DNA of 5,875 nt from Amoebophrya sp. A120 (lineage: Eukaryota > Protista > Dinoflagellata): NCBI GenBank assembly GCA_905178155.1, contig CAJINV010000115.1:1-5875 (forward strand), given 5' to 3'. The notes under the pieces are model-generated. The model searched no databases, had not been told where the DNA came from, and saw nothing but the letters and a program-made list of their open reading frames with translations. Shown here piece after piece: positions 1 through 5,875 of this stretch (its first letter is position 1; the number at the start of each line of letters is the position of its first letter). The position numbers were made by a program, and so were the translations under genes.

Positions 1-150
1 ATTTCCAGTACGTTCACATTTTTTCTAGCACAACAACATCATCATCTTCTCTTTTTCCAGCTGCACCGGGGCTCACTGGGAAAGATAAGCATTTTCGGAC
101 TTCGAGGCGTTCTGCTGCACGTGCTATTTTTTGTCGGTTTTATCCAGGCG

Positions 151-180
151 TTTTATTGTTTTTTTATTTTATTTTTACTA
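151..180 (-). terminator. A-rich tract with three AATAAA hexamers downstream of ORF2 (possible polyadenylation signal)
   Basis: Plus-strand TTTATT at 152-157, 163-168 and 168-173, about 145-165 nt after the ORF2 stop. Confidence 0.4.
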
Positions 181-317
181 ATCATCGTCCTCCCAAGTGT
201 TTGTCATCGATGTCCTTCGTCGAGGTCGTTGTGCAAGAGCAAGACTTCTGCGTGTCTTCCATAACAAGGTCGAGGCATCGGAGTGCGCGGCGGCAGGAAC
301 CTGTTACTTCTGGACTG

Positions 318-3300
318 TTATGCACTAGTTTCTAACATTCTTTCATAAACTATTCTACCGTATGCAATTCCTTGTCTTTGCTGCTGGCTTGTGTTGCTTT
401 TTTCTGGAACCCCTTTCTTCTTCGGCAGGGCCATCGTGCGTATTTTTCTTCCGTCACATGTGGCTTTCATGCCGCAAAACTCTTCTTCTGCCGTCGTGTT
501 CTTCACATGGCAGCCGGGGTATATGTTCGCAAGGGGCTGGCGCTGGCTATTCTTCTTCGCTATTCGCACCCGAAGAATGTCATCAATGTATCTTTTGTAC
601 AGCAGCAAGCCAAGGATTGCACTACTACTTCTTTCATGTTTGTAGCCAAACACGTTACTGATTTCGACCATTGCAGGGGATCCCATTGGCCCGCCAGTAG
701 TTTGGCGGAGGATGTGTCCTAGACATCGGACATAGCAAAAGTTGATATCTAGCTGTAGCACCTCCTTCACAAAACTCGGCGTCATCCAGGTTATTCCCTT
801 GCCCGGTTTCTTCTTCAGGTACTGAAATCTCCTCTGCGGTTTTGGCTTTTCGATTCTGTACAGCTCCTCCATCCCTCCGCGCAGTCTTGGTCGGTCTCGG
901 TGAACATCTAGTCTTTCTCGGAGGATGTGGTCTGCTTCCATGGCGATGTATTTCACCCCCTTGTTCTCCAGGGAGCTAGTGAAACCTCCCAGGAAACTCG
1001 TCGAATCCGCTGTGTCGCAACGCGTGAAGAAATCTTTCAGGTCTCCCGTGTCCAGCTGTAGCTCCTCGTCTTGTTTCCCTGTCTCTGCGAAGTGTCGGTT
1101 GATTTTTTCAATTTCTTCCACTACTTGTCGCTGCGTATAAAAAGTTGTTCGTCTTGCCGTTGGTTCGATTATCCTTCTGGCTATTTTTGCTGCTGCTGAT
1201 AGAATTCGCTTGTAACAATGCCCGGCATATGATGTCAGCGGGCGGTAGGCTATCCCTTCATCGGGCCACGGAAGGAAGTCATCGCGTTGTAGTTTGTTGA
1301 TAAAACGTGCCTTGAACAGGATGCGCAGGAAGGGCAACCTGTGTCGCCTGCTGGCTCTCATCGAAGTTCCTCCATCCTTGTGCAAGCTGAAAAACTCGCC
1401 GGCTTCGTCTTTTCTCGTCAACCCGAACCACCCCGGCACCTTCTCGTACTCCTCGGTGTGTTTTTTCATCGTTCTCTGCATCAACCTGTTGCAAGAGAAG
1501 AAAAGCTGCTTCTCGGGGTCTTTGTCTACTTCGTCGCAGTACAGAATATTCGCTCTCGAAAAGGCCAGCAGGCTCGCGTCAATGTCGTCGACAGTAACTC
1601 GGTTATCTTGTACCCACGTCCAGTCTACTGATTTTTCGGCCGCCCATCTGTCTGCTCTCCCGTCTAGCTTTATTACCTTCGTCCCGATCGCTTTTTCTAG
1701 TTTCTTTCTGGCTGCTGCAAAGTGCCTCTCTGTTTCGTTTCTGTTCGGGTGGAACCTGCCGAGCTTGTTCCAGGTTGGGTCTTTTCCCGGTTTTAGCAGC
1801 GGCAGCGTTTTTGTTGAAAAGCACACATGTCCATCAACGAGGGGGGCATCTGGGTACAGTTCTTTGATCTTCTTGCAGTGACATGGTGCGTCTTGTCCTG
1901 TCTGCTCCCAGTAGGCCAATAGGCCATGCCAGTTTTTCAGCCGGGTTCGGAAAAAGTCATGCGTTCGGGCGCACTTTTTTCTCTTTATCCGGATGATGAC
2001 ATCTCCTTCTCCTGTTCCTTCATGTTTGTACCTCTGCGCCATCGTGCTGTAGATCGAGAGAAGCGGCCCGATTGCTTCTGGTGATGTGTCGAAGAGCTCG
2101 ACCGTGGCTATTCTTGCTGCTATTTTTTCGCCTCGTATGCATTTGAGGTGGTGCTGGAACATCAGGTATTTCCCATCGGCCAAAATCCGCCTCGCATATC
2201 TGTCCAGCGCGATCACCTGTCTAGTGTTGAGATTCGTGAGGGCGGTCTGAACGTGTCGGGGCGGCTCCTTTAGTCTCAGTGACAGCCTCGTAATGAGCTT
2301 CAGGAACTTGTAGCCAACCTCTTTCAGGTTCCTCGTCCTCAAAATCCGCGCCGCTTCCTTCGGAATTTTGTCGCTTGGGCTTCTGTGCTCTCCTCCTTCT
2401 CTTCTTCGTCTCGTCGAGCGGAATTCCTTGCAGGTTCTGGCGGTCATGATGATCGTTTTCCGAATTCCCCCGTACTTTTTGCCCTTGGCGCTCGCTTTTT
2501 TCTCCATCGTGTTCGCCGTTGCATTGAAATACCCGATCAACATCATCTCGGCCATTTTCAGCGGCGTGGACTCCACTATTCGCGCTCGCATCACTCTCAC
2601 GAACAAGTACTCAGCCAGCTCTTTTCGATGGAACGCGCACCCCCGTCCATCACGGTACTCGCTGATCTTCTCGGACCAGTGGCACTTCCATCTGGTCTTC
2701 TTGTGCTGAATGGTTTGTCCGATGTAAGTCGACCGCGTTCCCGGACGCCAGGCGAGGTAGATAACTCCCTCCTCGTTTTCTCCTTCTTCCCGTTCGTCTT
2801 CGTTTGCCGCGCAACAAATCTCCAGTTTGTTTCGTAGGGTCCTGCAGAAATGTGTGTCGCTTTTGTCCAGGAACGCCCTGGCGATCCATTGGTCAAGGCT
2901 GAAAAGAGAATCTCTCAACACTGGCAAGAAGTGTCGCCCTCCTATTCTCGGCGCTGGTAGTGGTCTGCTGTCTCTGCATTGTTCTGCCCAAGGCTCGGGC
3001 AGGTTCTCGGCTTGGAATCTGTTGGTGGAGTAGGTTACTTGTTTTGCTCTTTTGTCATAGTCGAAGGTGACTACGCAGCTGCATCGGTTTGTTTGTCTGC
3101 AATAGTTACACTGCCCCCGTGGCGCTGCTGTTCGTGCAAAAGCGTAGCTTTTCATTGCTACTATAAGTTGTTGAGTGGTCGCGCACATGTTGTCGGTGTA
3201 CGTGTGCGGGCCTCTTCTTACTAGATCTCGGATTTTGTTGCGGATAAGGTGCAAAACGTTTATCCACGTGCGTGTGCCTACTCTCAGCGAGAGTGGGTAA

Positions 3301-3332
3301 AGCGGTACTGTTCTGTTAGTTCTCATCATCAT
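318..3332 (-). CDS. ORF2: GIY-YIG endonuclease / reverse transcriptase polyprotein (PLE-type, Naiad/Chlamys-like architecture), 1004 aa
   Basis: Uninterrupted ORF starting ATGATGATG and ending TAA. Motifs: GVIY(189-192), YIGQT(203-207), R214, H218, E262, N274; PCHC..GHVC(483-504); DK(603-604); LPFLRILFK(666-674); RPLTS(697-701); DLKDFFT(764-770); QTTGGPMGSP(877-886); RYIDD(914-918); EFCGM(951-955). Confidence 0.92.
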   Translation of the reverse strand: MMMRTNRTVPLYPLSLRVGTRTWINVLHLIRNKIRDLVRRGPHTYTDNMCATTQQLIVAMKSYAFARTAAPRGQCNYCRQTNRCSCVVTFDYDKRAKQVTYSTNRFQAENLPEPWAEQCRDSRPLPAPRIGGRHFLPVLRDSLFSLDQWIARAFLDKSDTHFCRTLRNKLEICCAANEDEREEGENEEGVIYLAWRPGTRSTYIGQTIQHKKTRWKCHWSEKISEYRDGRGCAFHRKELAEYLFVRVMRARIVESTPLKMAEMMLIGYFNATANTMEKKASAKGKKYGGIRKTIIMTARTCKEFRSTRRRREGGEHRSPSDKIPKEAARILRTRNLKEVGYKFLKLITRLSLRLKEPPRHVQTALTNLNTRQVIALDRYARRILADGKYLMFQHHLKCIRGEKIAARIATVELFDTSPEAIGPLLSIYSTMAQRYKHEGTGEGDVIIRIKRKKCARTHDFFRTRLKNWHGLLAYWEQTGQDAPCHCKKIKELYPDAPLVDGHVCFSTKTLPLLKPGKDPTWNKLGRFHPNRNETERHFAAARKKLEKAIGTKVIKLDGRADRWAAEKSVDWTWVQDNRVTVDDIDASLLAFSRANILYCDEVDKDPEKQLFFSCNRLMQRTMKKHTEEYEKVPGWFGLTRKDEAGEFFSLHKDGGTSMRASRRHRLPFLRILFKARFINKLQRDDFLPWPDEGIAYRPLTSYAGHCYKRILSAAAKIARRIIEPTARRTTFYTQRQVVEEIEKINRHFAETGKQDEELQLDTGDLKDFFTRCDTADSTSFLGGFTSSLENKGVKYIAMEADHILRERLDVHRDRPRLRGGMEELYRIEKPKPQRRFQYLKKKPGKGITWMTPSFVKEVLQLDINFCYVRCLGHILRQTTGGPMGSPAMVEISNVFGYKHERSSSAILGLLLYKRYIDDILRVRIAKKNSQRQPLANIYPGCHVKNTTAEEEFCGMKATCDGRKIRTMALPKKKGVPEKSNTSQQQRQGIAYGRIVYERMLETSA
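468..1526 (-). other. Reverse transcriptase core of ORF2 (aa 603-955)
   Basis: Catalytic aspartates D764 (nt 1041-1043) and YIDD (nt 579-590), motif B QxxGxPMGSP starting at nt 704, finger motifs P..IxxK and RPLTS, and the PLE-type DK motif at nt 1521-1526. Confidence 0.92.
1821..1886 (-). other. Zinc-knuckle-like motif PCHC-x14-GHVC in the EN-RT linker
   Basis: Translation PCHCKKIKELYPDAPLVDGHVC (aa 483-504). As I recall, a CxC..GH motif at this position is characteristic of PLEs with N-terminal EN. Confidence 0.65.
2511..2768 (-). other. GIY-YIG endonuclease domain of ORF2 (aa 189-274)
   Basis: GVIYLAWRPGTRSTYIGQTIQHKKTRWKCH...AEMMLI...ATAN carries the GIY and YIG motifs, the downstream Arg and His, the metal-binding Glu and the terminal Asn, in the order expected for the superfamily. 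Confidence 0.9.
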
Positions 3333-3345
3333 ATTTCTTCAATTC

Positions 3346-3362
3346 AAACAAGTGGGCGAGAA
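3346..3362. repeat. 17-bp inverted repeat, arm in the ORF1-ORF2 spacer (AAACAAGTGGGCGAGAA)
   Basis: Exact reverse complement of 5594-5610; lies 13 nt upstream of the ORF2 ATG. Confidence 0.95.
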
Positions 3363-3385
3363 GTCGTCGTTGTTATTGCTGCCAA

Positions 3386-3394
3386 AATGGCGCT
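3386..3394. repeat. 9-bp inverted repeat arm (AATGGCGCT), complementary to the ORF1 start-codon region 5578-5586
   Basis: 5578-5586 reads AGCGCCATT, the exact reverse complement. The pair is nested co-linearly inside the 17-bp pair. Confidence 0.85.
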
Positions 3395-3439
3395 CGATGT
3401 AGATCTGTTGTGCACGTGCGAAGCGGATTACTGCTGCTG

Positions 3440-3495
3440 TTTTTTGTTTTTTTAAAAAATTTTTTACTTTTTATTATTTTTGCTTTTTTAATATT
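3440..3495 (-). promoter_or_regulatory. A-rich tract in the inter-ORF spacer containing AATAAA (possible polyadenylation signal or internal promoter element)
   Basis: The minus strand is almost pure A/T from about 27 nt after the ORF1 stop. AATAAA is at 3470-3475 and AAAAAGTAAAAA at 3461-3472. Confidence 0.35.
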
Positions 3496-3521
3496 GCCAG
3501 AACCAGAACTGCACTACTGTG

Positions 3522-5585
3522 CTACTCCTCCCACTTCCCGTTCATCCATGCGTCCCATTCTTCTTTCGAGTACTCTTTGTTCCAGTCATTCGCATTCTCC
3601 TCTTTTCCCGTTTTGTTGGAGTTGATGTTCCCACTGCTGTTGCTGGTGTTGCTGCTGCTTGTTTTGTTGTTCCCACTGCTGTTGCTGTTGCTGCTGCTGC
3701 TCGTCCTGTTGTTTGTTTCCTGTTCCACTTCATCCTCGTACTCCCAGGTCTTGTTGCAGTTCAGGGCGTTCTTGCTGCTGTTCGATTTATTGTTCTTAGC
3801 TTTTTCCAAATTCCCGTCGTCATTCGGTACCAAATCGCCCACATCCAGTTCATCGTCGTCAAACTGCTGTTCCAAAAAATCCACATCCACCTCGTCATCT
3901 GAATCCAGGTTAATAATCTCGTCCTCTTCTGCGTAGTTCCCGAAATTGCCGATGGAGTGTTTTTCCGCGAGGTCTGCGTCATCTCCGTCGTCGATCTGCA
4001 TCTTGCTGGCTTTTTCGACCTTGATGCTGTAGTCGAGAATCTCCATCACCCTGATAGCCAACCCGATTCTGCCAAAGCTCTGCTTCTCTACCCAGACTGC
4101 TCCTTCGTCCGTGTCCTTCACAAAGCTGTACGATTCTGCTCCAAGGAGCATGAAGTGCTTGCGGAAGTCTTCGTGCCAAAAACACTTTTGGTAGAGACCG
4201 GTTTTATCTCCAGTGAGCGTAGACTGCACCGAAGCCTGCAACGACCCCACATTGATCTCCGGCAAGATCTTCCCCGCTTCCTTCACCTTTTTTGTGACGC
4301 TCCGCATCATGTACTTGGCGAAAGTTTCCGGCTTCTTCATGTGCTTGGGCTTCCACATGTCAAAAGAGGTCTTTGCGGCATGTGCTCCGGTTTTCACTCC
4401 TACATCCGAAAGCTTCTGGCTGCTCTCTTCTTCAAGGCATTTCCAGGTTTCTGCTGCTGCTTCCCACTCGTCTTCCAGGTAAGCTTCCCAGTTGAAGTTG
4501 ACAAATTCCTTTTTCTCTGCTTTTTTGGCGTTCTCCGTACTCCGCTCCGCAGCTTCTTCCGCAGGGGTTTTTGGCAGTGGTGGTAGCACGGGGGTGTCCT
4601 GCAGTTTCAGCTTTCTCTTCTTGCCCTCGGCCTGGTCTTCCTCCGCGTGCTCGTGTTCTTCTTCGCCGTCCTTCTCTGCTACTGTTTCGCCCTGTTCTTT
4701 CTCATTCGGTCGCGGTCGCAAGTTCAAGGCTCTGGTGGAGGGTTGAATAATTTCTGGCGGCACCTCTAAAACCGTCGAGGCCATCTCAACGTCTTTGTTT
4801 CCCTTATTCTTCCCACCTTCTTTCCCCGCGCCCTTTCCCTTCCCGTCTTTCTTCGTCGGCAAAGCCACAGCGTCGCGGCGCACGAGCTGTTTCCCTTTTC
4901 CTCCTTTGCTCGTAGTCCCGGCTTCTTCTCCCTTCTTGCTGAACTGTACGCGCTGGAGCTCCTCGATCTTCTTGTTCTGGTTCTTGATCAAGTCCACTAA
5001 TTCCTTCGGGATCCCAGCGGGCTCCTTGCTGCTACTGCTAGTAGTCGGAGCGACTTCTTCCGTTTCCTGCGGCGGCCCATCAACACACTTTTCCCAGTCG
5101 ATTTTGTCATACCAATCCGGTTCCGGCCCGACAATTTTCGAGAAGGCGCGGCTGCTGATGGTACTCATGGCGCTGAGCATCTTCCTCTGGTCTTCTTCTT
5201 TTACCATATCCAGTTTCGCTACCAGTGCCGCGACATGTCCTACAGCGAATCTGGGTACTGGTAGTGGGCAATATTTCGGGATTGTTAGCTCGGGGTAGGC
5301 TGGGTCCAGGATCTTCAGGGTGTTCATCATTTCGCGCGGGACTTTTCCCAGGAGGCTGACGTCTCTGGTGCTCCGTCCTTCTGCAATCGGATAATAGGTA
5401 AGCTTTCCGAAAAACTTCTCTTCCGAAACTGCTTCCACGGCGTCGTTGTTCCATCCCCCGGGCGGTTGCTCATTGTACTGGAACTGGTTGTATCCGCCTC
5501 CTTTTCCACCAAAATAGTTCTTTCCTCCTCCGTATCCTTTACCGGCTCCACTGTCTGCCGGCGGTCTTCGATTTGCCAGCGCCAT
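3522..5585 (-). CDS. ORF1: hypothetical protein of 687 aa (701 aa if the TTG at 5627 is used), largely disordered; possible RNA-binding/RNP chaperone
   Basis: Long open frame whose first in-frame ATG (5585) is in strong context (ATAATGG). It has a Gly/Tyr/Lys-rich N-terminus, a short heptad-like stretch (ELVDLIKNQNKKIEELQR), GK-rich and KKRKLK basic patches, Asp/Glu tracts, an Asn/Ser repeat and a Trp-rich acidic tail. No known domain was recognised, so the function is inferred. Confidence 0.85.
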   Translation of the reverse strand: MALANRRPPADSGAGKGYGGGKNYFGGKGGGYNQFQYNEQPPGGWNNDAVEAVSEEKFFGKLTYYPIAEGRSTRDVSLLGKVPREMMNTLKILDPAYPELTIPKYCPLPVPRFAVGHVAALVAKLDMVKEEDQRKMLSAMSTISSRAFSKIVGPEPDWYDKIDWEKCVDGPPQETEEVAPTTSSSSKEPAGIPKELVDLIKNQNKKIEELQRVQFSKKGEEAGTTSKGGKGKQLVRRDAVALPTKKDGKGKGAGKEGGKNKGNKDVEMASTVLEVPPEIIQPSTRALNLRPRPNEKEQGETVAEKDGEEEHEHAEEDQAEGKKRKLKLQDTPVLPPLPKTPAEEAAERSTENAKKAEKKEFVNFNWEAYLEDEWEAAAETWKCLEEESSQKLSDVGVKTGAHAAKTSFDMWKPKHMKKPETFAKYMMRSVTKKVKEAGKILPEINVGSLQASVQSTLTGDKTGLYQKCFWHEDFRKHFMLLGAESYSFVKDTDEGAVWVEKQSFGRIGLAIRVMEILDYSIKVEKASKMQIDDGDDADLAEKHSIGNFGNYAEEDEIINLDSDDEVDVDFLEQQFDDDELDVGDLVPNDDGNLEKAKNNKSNSSKNALNCNKTWEYEDEVEQETNNRTSSSSNSNSSGNNKTSSSNTSNSSGNINSNKTGKEENANDWNKEYSKEEWDAWMNGKWEE
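3621..3704 (-). repeat. Imperfect 2 x 42-bp tandem repeat in ORF1 (TSSSSNSNSSGNNK / TSSSNTSNSSGNIN)
   Basis: The 20-mer TGTTCCCACTGCTGTTGCTG occurs at 3626-3645 and 3668-3687, a period of 42, within AAC/AGC-rich low-complexity coding sequence. Confidence 0.85.
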
Positions 5586-5593
5586 TATTTGTT

Positions 5594-5610
5594 TTCTCGC
5601 CCACTTGTTT
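5594..5610. repeat. 17-bp inverted repeat, arm in the ORF1 leader (TTCTCGCCCACTTGTTT)
   Basis: Exact reverse complement of 3346-3362. Confidence 0.95.
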
Positions 5611-5617
5611 TGATGAT

Positions 5618-5635
5618 TTAGTTCCAAAATTGCAT
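5618..5635 (-). promoter_or_regulatory. Short upstream ORF MQFWN*
   Basis: ATG CAA TTT TGG AAC TAA on the minus strand, in weak context (CGCATGC). It is the only AUG between the TATA-like motif (5730) and the ORF1 ATG. The sequence is certain; its translation is inferred. Confidence 0.5.
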
Positions 5636-5704
5636 GCGTTTATGTAAAATATAGTGAGCAGTTTAAGGCGTAATAAGTTTACGATTTTCTATGGTGTTAA
5701 TCAG

Positions 5705-5732
5705 TTTTTATTTCTTTTTACTTTTTTATAAA
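5705..5732 (-). promoter_or_regulatory. A-rich tract with a TATA-like motif upstream of ORF1
   Basis: The minus strand reads TATAAAAAAGTAAAAAGAAATAAAAA from 5730, about 145 nt upstream of ATG 5585. TTTATAAA (5725-5732) is palindromic, and AATAAA is at 5707-5712. Promoter function is inferred only. Confidence 0.35.
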
Positions 5733-5875
5733 GATCAGAGATTTTAGATATTACCCGCAAAGCTAAAATATCTAGGCAAATTCCGGAGACAGTTTGATCT
5801 CACTAAAGCGACGAAGTGTAAAGACGAACGAAGTTTTCCAAACGTAAAGAAGTGCTAGAACATCGGGAAAGTCCA

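Follow-up and report, generated by a model that had tools for sequence, protein, structure and literature searches.

A 5,875-nt stretch of the Amoebophrya sp. A120 genome (GenBank contig CAJINV010000115.1, positions 1 to 5,875; here called the window) is, judged by its sequence, occupied by a two-gene Penelope-like retroelement (PLE) in which both open reading frames (ORFs) lie on the minus strand, divided by a 189-nt spacer, with an N-terminal GIY-YIG nuclease and a reverse transcriptase (RT) in ORF2. The leader ahead of ORF1 and the spacer behind it share three nested helices, H0 (7 bp), H1 (17 bp) and H2 (9 bp), the three longest in nested order, and the stem that they build is predicted to fold all of ORF1 into an RNA loop of ~2.2 kb (Table 1). 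By analogy with viral systems and on the basis of folding models we tentatively favour, at somewhat less than even confidence, a reading of this stem as a ribosome shunt dependent on a short upstream ORF (uORF), which would carry ribosomes past ORF1 to the RT gene. The nested blocks, the position of the uORF stop, the scarcity of AUGs and an AU-rich stretch are read from the sequence, and folding supports H1 fully and H0 and H2 in part; on these models the structure appears real and the mechanism is a proposal. The papers cited below were available in part, and statements drawn from them hold for those parts.

A 17-bp inverted repeat such as H1 occurred in none of 100 shuffles of the window, and the partition function computed for 5780-3220 gives H1 a pair probability (P) of ~1.0, H0 one of 0.62-0.66 and H2 one of ~0.4-0.6. 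Taken whole, the closed stem has a duplex energy of -47.9 kcal/mol. The 40 nt following the uORF stop pair with the spacer at -46.3 kcal/mol, a value reached by none of 500 shuffles, and the neighbouring stepped 40-mers take the top ranks among 203.

The innermost helix had been singled out in an earlier note on this DNA, and its description there is accurate: the H2 arms are exact reverse complements across the ORF1 AUG (5585-5583), they lie within H1, from which an asymmetric internal loop with a 5' side of 7 nt and a 3' side of 23 nt separates them, and a form of 12 bp in which 2 nt bulge out (5591-5578 versus 3394-3383; loop sides 2 and 20 nt) has the correct geometry. The 9-bp match is modestly beyond chance: perfect helices of at least 9 bp directly within H1 turned up in 0.64% of 5000 shuffles and for 11 of 558 other windows of 60 nt, a 9-mer covering the AUG in 0.25% of 20000 shuffles, and by duplex energy the H2 region was equalled in 4.75% of 2000 shuffles and in 9 of 500 in a second shuffle set. 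The start region of ORF1 also has complements on the minus strand at 552-538 in ORF2 (13 of 15 positions) and at 5175-5167 in ORF1 (9 bp). Its duplex energies are -23.2 near 552, -21.7 near 5175 and -17.3 in the spacer, and with stronger partners at those two sites the GC-rich start region evidently finds partners easily. The bulged 3-bp extension shifts the duplex energy by ~0.5 kcal/mol and pairs with P 0.14-0.16 in the 2561-nt fold and 0.25 in a mini-construct; we therefore rejected the 12-bp form as the main state.

Table 1. Features of the stem, its surroundings and the two ORFs in the window (P, predicted pair probability)
Feature	Position	Strand	Remarks
uORF, 5 codons (MQFWN) plus UAA	5618..5635	-	Weak context; only AUG between 5780 and the ORF1 AUG
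H0 5' arm, 7 nt	5611..5617	-	Fills the whole gap between uORF stop and H1; P ~0.62-0.66
H1 5' arm, 17-bp perfect helix, -28.6 kcal/mol	5594..5610	-	Predicted scanning barrier
H1 3' arm	3346..3362	-	14/17 pyrimidines; polypyrimidine-like, ahead of AG 3338-3337
14-nt bulge between H1 and H0	3332..3345	-	10/13 A/U before AUG; unpaired 0.64-0.97; candidate landing site
H0 3' arm	3325..3331	-	In three tandem ORF2 AUGs (3332, 3329, 3326; all A at -3)
Direct repeat, left copy GAACTAA	5618..5624	-	Holds last codon and stop of uORF; abuts H0 arm
Direct repeat, right copy, 7 nt	3316..3322	-	2 nt after H0 3' arm
H2 5' arm	5578..5586	-	Covers ORF1 AUG; optional weak extension 5591-5588
H2 3' arm	3386..3394	-	Perfect complement of H2 5' arm
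Local hairpin of H2 5' arm	5557..5580 (5580-5575 with 5557-5562)	-	Predicted to replace H2 when H1 is open, P 0.99
Local hairpin competing with H2	3378..3393 (3393-3388 with 3384-3378)	-	-6.4 kcal/mol; P ~0.4, 0.68 with H1 open
ORF1, 687 aa	3522..5585	-	Gly/Lys-rich N-terminus, acidic tracts, Asn/Ser-rich tracts
ORF2, 1004 aa	318..3332	-	CxxC..CxC 75-86, GIY-YIG-type motif 191-205, CxC 484, DK 603
ORF2 RT motifs	DLKDFF 764, GGPMGSP 880, YIDD 915	-	Motif inspection
AATAAA in A-rich spacer tract	3470..3475	-	Possible poly(A) signal for an ORF1-only RNA, which would lack the 3' arms

The arrangement of the stem recalls the shunts of cauliflower mosaic virus (CaMV), rice tungro bacilliform virus (RTBV), rice tungro spherical virus (RTSV) as well as foamy virus (PMC5902531, PMC3291615, PMC3542737), in which a short uORF ends before a long-range stable stem that is followed by an open, UA-rich landing stretch (layout in PMC5902531) and then an AUG. 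The uORFs of RTBV and RTSV encode 5-6 amino acids and stop 7-8 nt before the stem (PMC3291615); the 5-residue uORF of the window, which stops 7 nt before H1 (P ~1.0) and 0 nt before H0, matches these numbers, and its stem too is followed by an AU-rich stretch predicted to be open. This uORF has the sole AUG of the leader (5780-5586), and the 189-nt spacer has none. In duck hepatitis B virus an RT gene standing behind a structural gene on a bicistronic RNA is likewise reached by shunting (PMC5902531, PMC3542737). The loop here differs from the non-coding leader skipped in CaMV-type shunts (PMC5902531, PMC3291615, PMC3542737) in being a complete 687-codon gene of 2.2 kb, and further differences are the extra helices over both start codons, the retrotransposon host and a function that is here predicted.

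In the closed RNA a ribosome translating the uORF would terminate at the base of the stem, melt H0, free the adjacent ORF2 AUGs in doing so and reinitiate at ORF2. A mini-construct with 5640-5611 kept unpaired loses H0 and keeps H1. Scanning toward ORF1 would stall at H1 with H2 as reinforcement, and by the folding models the closed stem could indeed block it: in Zika virus a long-range helix of -26.7 kcal/mol before the AUG blocks scanning (PMC6765113), against -28.6 kcal/mol for H1. In the open RNA ribosomes would leak past the uORF AUG to ORF1, and if a shorter RNA had its 3' end in the spacer, past the AATAAA at 3475, it would lack all three 3' arms and give ORF1 by leaky scanning as well. 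The start contexts agree with those given in the earlier note, with C at -3 and C at +4 for the uORF AUG (5635), which is weak, and A at -3 and G at +4 for the ORF1 AUG (5585), which is strong; this grading follows the Kozak rule, which may not be that of this host.

Several points weigh against the shunt. Described shunts skip leaders of ~445-700 nt (PMC5902531, PMC3291615, PMC3542737) compared with a 2.2-kb loop here, and duck hepatitis B virus, for which no take-off site is defined, reportedly does not use the layout of uORF plus stem that is explicit in the window (PMC3542737). The uORF may lie outside the mRNA, depending on where the 5' end of the RNA falls. H0 taken alone is not beyond chance, appearing in 9% of 5000 shuffles and 3.9% of windows, and the structural claims in general rest on equilibrium folding. 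The 7-nt direct repeat that flanks the stem is left unexplained by a shunt. The remaining points come from a relative of the element.

A scan of metagenome DNA gave two related loci, L001 and L002, from 7 candidate stretches; another metagenome scan, five scans of viral contigs and two of prokaryote genomes gave none. Just one of the two (L001) has a leader, L002 starting inside ORF2. L001 has an ORF1 of 774 aa, a 244-nt spacer and an ORF2 of 1132 aa (22% identical to that of the window, E 6e-29), and since it keeps the order ORF1-spacer-ORF2 the two-ORF layout appears native to the lineage. Its ORF1 has a Gly/Lys-rich start and is not significantly like the window ORF1 (E 0.08). We found no perfect leader/spacer helix longer than 9 bp in L001 and no perfect complement of at least 6 nt across either start codon, which at 22% identity is a weak test. 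An imperfect, G-U-rich helix starts 3 nt past a 3-codon uORF, one of four short uORFs tested, and closes on the end of ORF1; with boundaries chosen afterwards its energy (-34.7) was reached in none of 500 shuffles, and it ranks 2 of 267. In an unbiased test, to the detriment of the shunt, it was equalled in 4 of 60 shuffles, has P ~0.35 and is absent from the minimum-energy fold. Also, 7 AUGs lie between its 3' arm and ORF2, so that splicing fits L001 better than shunting does. The ORF1 AUG region of L001 pairs with the last ORF1 codons (P 0.57), which is not significant by shuffling (60/500). L001 thus speaks weakly for the looping-out of ORF1 being shared by the family, and leaves shunt and splice undecided.

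Splicing or another form of RNA processing is the foremost alternative, which we rate as not much less probable than the shunt. The stem would here guide or mask the processing, ORF1 being taken out as an introner-type or GT-AG intron, or a spliced leader being joined at AG 3338-3337; ORF2 would gain its own mRNA and H2 would be merely the inner part of the hairpin. Introners of Amoebophrya have inverted repeats of 8-20 nt, with direct repeats just 5' of the 5' arm and at most 2 nt past the 3' arm, repeats that are borne by many of its non-canonical introns; their splice sites vary round the hairpin, and spliced leaders occur on 18-38% of Amoebophrya transcripts (PMC7789003). The best non-self relatives of ORF2 are Amoebophrya proteins, H1 at 17 nt falls within the introner size range, and the direct repeat of the window is placed round H0 as in introners (PMC7789003, PMC12130899), abutting the outer arm upstream and 2 nt from it downstream. 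The first AG after H1 on the minus strand (3338-3337) lies inside the 14-nt bulge, four bases before the ORF2 AUG and behind the pyrimidine-rich H1 arm. PLEs are known to keep introns, with alternative 5' introns in Chlamys-3 (PMC8557442), and in L001 a donor-like GTAAAG precedes the helix arm by ~20 nt and the spacer holds pyrimidine-AG sites. Just inside ORF2 of the window (3320-3308, minus strand) stands ACTAAC followed by AG at 3314 and 3309, which we take to resemble a branch point that has acceptors close by.

Excision exactly from repeat to repeat (2302 nt) would, to the contrary, delete all three ORF2 AUGs and leave the uORF stop, one base off the ORF2 frame, and was rejected as a route to full ORF2; it is in this too that the block differs from introners. 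Inexact joins could attach the uORF start to ORF2 in 122 ways, of which not one is GT-AG. The block is also unlike Amoebophrya introners (PMC7789003, PMC12130899) in its 2.3-kb length with a long ORF and its three-block repeat, and in a direct repeat of 7 nt rather than 3-5 nt (PMC7789003) that flanks H0 and not H1, no direct repeat of at least 5 nt being flush with H1. The arms begin ATCATCA (H0) and AAACAAG (H1), with no TTA/TAT introner family motif (TTA-R-R or TAT..AAA). RNA contigs of run X3 cover 15 of 30 bins of the window, with no bin over 3333-3528 or 5489-5684, and show no joints within that coverage; three raw RNA runs labelled with the same species gave 0 reads on the window, which bears on neither reading.

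The direct repeat GAACTAA has two copies in the window, both strands counted. Random boundary pairs were flanked by such a repeat in 399 of 196,671 cases over the whole window and in 774 of 172,794 in non-coding sequence, a chance of 0.2-0.45% for given boundaries, the repeat having been noticed after the boundaries were chosen. A second 7-nt repeat joins the same two regions (5630-5624 and 3388-3382), so that repeats of this kind do occur by chance.

We consider it improbable that the stem serves replication instead, either in the selection or packaging of full-length RNA or as a point where the RT jumps template at the direct repeats, with H2 accessory or due to chance. Short direct repeats at the base of a hairpin favour RT jumps, and the 1.8-5% chance level of H2 by duplex-energy shuffles and the stronger partners near 552 and 5175 would suit this explanation. 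The multi-part long-range helices round the AUG of flaviviruses serve replication (PMC6765113). The likeness to the flavivirus UAR/DAR/CS cyclisation extends to several long-range helices round a start codon, the upstream one blocking scanning; that pairing joins the genome ends (PMC6765113), whereas the stem here closes ORF1 alone and not the whole element, with the second gene at its base. Nor would replication account for a uORF that stops at the base of the stem, for the pairing of H0 with the ORF2 AUGs or for a spacer free of AUGs. Plain reinitiation after ORF1 across that spacer may also take place, in which case ORF2 would not need the stem.

The earlier note had placed the switch in H2 itself, which would hide the ORF1 AUG and toggle ORF1 against ORF2, possibly with feedback from the ORF1 protein, and this narrow version now seems quite improbable. 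It can draw on the exact cover of the AUG at a level seen in 0.25% of 20000 shuffles, and on a bistable-like behaviour, both arms having local alternative hairpins and H2 forming with P ~0.4-0.6 in the long fold. The energy of H2 is only -13.6 kcal/mol, L001 holds no significant equivalent, and when the leader to 5594 is held unpaired H2 falls to P = 2e-6, the AUG is unpaired at 0.98/0.64/0.56 and both arms refold into their local hairpins. A ribosome at 5585 has already unwound 5610-5594 and H2 would therefore be gone by then; since H2 vanishes with H1 held open, the predicted gate is H1, and H2 as an independent block was rejected. The value of 0.86 for H2 in a mini-construct with H1 blocked is due to its artificial 12-nt tether. 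H2 is thus predicted to be a helper of the stem that is present only while H1 holds, and not the switch. What survives in outline is the two-state picture, with a closed state that would shut ORF1 and set ORF2 by the leader and an open state giving ORF1 by leaky scanning, the block acting at H1; for feedback by the ORF1 protein we found no support. Three features absent from the earlier note, namely H0 on the ORF2 AUGs, the end of the uORF at the foot of the stem and the direct repeat round it, point to shunting or splicing.

It is very doubtful that 5617-3323 is an independent transposon with inverted repeats that carried ORF1 into an element of a single gene and duplicated 7 bp of target, H0-H2 being pieces of its one decayed terminal repeat. 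A direct repeat does stand beside near-terminal inverted repeats, and some introners of Amoebophrya bear ORFs and end in terminal inverted repeats (PMC12130899). However, in L001 too a related ORF2 is preceded by a long ORF1 whose start is rich in Gly/Lys (the two ORF1s not being significantly alike), ORF2 at an empty site would be left without an in-frame AUG over its first 49 codons, and ORF1 has no transposase match. Least probable is a translational hop from the last uORF codon AAC (5623-5621) across the stem base to the in-frame AAC at 3317-3315, fusing the uORF peptide to ORF2. The matched codon, followed by a stop and the stem with the in-frame AAC just past it, does give a layout resembling T4 gene 60 and yeast mitochondrial bypassing, but known hops span ~50 nt, ORF2 is already supplied with three good AUGs and the AAC within the repeat copy itself precedes a stop.

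The assignment of the element rests on ORF2. HMMER searches with it returned 28 proteins, of which 3 were pieces of the window and the others 24-35% identical to ORF2, and among the 10 looked up the three best non-self relatives belong to Amoebophrya. Word-indexed searches matched pieces of the window itself only, Pfam and PDB gave nothing significant for either protein of the window and Rfam nothing significant in the window. ORF1 has no family and no non-self homologue in Pfam, PDB or a word-indexed protein search that was limited to shorter proteins for ORF1. The GIY-YIG-type motif of ORF2 is accompanied by R, H, E and N in alignment A1 and lies N-terminal to the RT; the Atlas neighbours of ORF2 include clusters (0.96-0.95) with PF01541 in 25% of members and others with RVT_1 or HTH_animal, and PF01541 is matched by 2 of 20 aligned proteins and not by the window ORF2 itself. 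A single-sequence fold of the nuclease region reached a pLDDT (predicted local distance difference test) of 35, too low for use. Between nuclease and RT stands CHC at 484 (CRC at 557 in L001), in a shared column of A1, the RT core is preceded by VDK at 602 (TDK in L001), and RT motifs A and B, between which Naiad/Chlamys PLEs have an insertion in the fingers, lie 116 aa apart (764 to 880).

This domain order is that of the Naiad/Chlamys PLEs (PMC8557442), which share with the present element the GIY-YIG before the RT, the CxC linker, the DK motif and the lack of a hammerhead ribozyme and, as in Chlamys, of a CCHH zinc finger. Rfam gave no hammerhead in the window, L001 or L002, and a simple pattern search no CCHH finger in the ORF2 nuclease. 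The window has no long direct repeat of the pseudo-long terminal repeat (pseudo-LTR) kind, and L001 has flanking direct repeats of ~1 kb. One Chara-type element of the Naiad/Chlamys group has an upstream ORF (PMC8557442). In contrast to that group (PMC8557442), the long ORF1 of the element lacks a zinc knuckle, its nuclease comes after a conserved CxxC..CxC (75-86), and its relatives are in Amoebophrya; the main text of PMC8557442 has no mention of 'dinoflagellate', 'alveolate' or 'Amoebophrya'.

Around the two genes we noted further features. On the minus strand an A-rich tract with AATAAA follows both ORFs (AATAAA at 3475, and at 173, 168 and 157), and after each tract stands the 9-mer GCACGTGCA (3419 and 124; compared regions 3490-3411 and 180-116), these being its sole two sense copies. 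The shared tract, AATAAA and 9-mer could be a 3'-end or promoter signal yielding separate ORF1 and ORF2 transcripts. The same strand has an 8-bp hairpin (5774-5748) where the element probably has its 5' edge, and a TATA-like run (5730-5722) ~95 nt 5' of the uORF. The flanks of the window (1-95 and ~5778-5875) have mean contig depths of 23-28 per bin in run X3, against 0-5 in the body, and continue into other sequences in contigs of that run, from which we take them to be parts of other repeats. At 95 the loose end has a further copy of a ~29-nt unit also present at ~55-83. In L001 the direct repeats (205-1175 and 9602-10573), 97-100% identical where matched, flank a 9.4-kb unit and are pseudo-LTR- or LTR-like. 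Between the 5' repeat and ORF1 (1528-2636) this locus has two extra ORFs of 133 and 235 aa linked by a TAATG stop-start, with no significant Pfam match. L002 has its related ORF2 in two parts, in frames that overlap (2-847 and 759-2246), and an array of ~170-185-nt units (5522-7466) lies downstream of it.

How the second gene of two-gene retroelements is translated has been described as an open question (PMC3894237), and the routes listed for retrotransposons in the literature consulted are stop-start reinitiation, possible internal ribosome entry sites and frameshifting, shunting not being among them. In full-text literature that lacks most subscription papers we found no such stem, no retrotransposon shunt and no account of elements like this from dinoflagellates. 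The ingredients, taken one by one, all have known counterparts, and it is the combination of a whole gene in the loop with both start codons paired that we did not find in that literature. It is conceivable, though less likely than not, that a two-gene PLE lineage in syndinian dinoflagellates shunts across a whole 2.2-kb gene, the stem docking the uORF stop on the RT starts and hiding the ORF1 start, so that each RNA would serve as either ORF1 or RT message. With ~60 nt on each side of ORF1 the design is compact and mutable and can separate shunting, splicing and masking. If the shunt is true, a mechanism of viruses would be found in transposons as well, across loops whose length is several times that of the ones described; if splicing is true, a retroelement would be exploiting the unexplained hairpin-bounded splicing of its host and would give a handle on that machinery.

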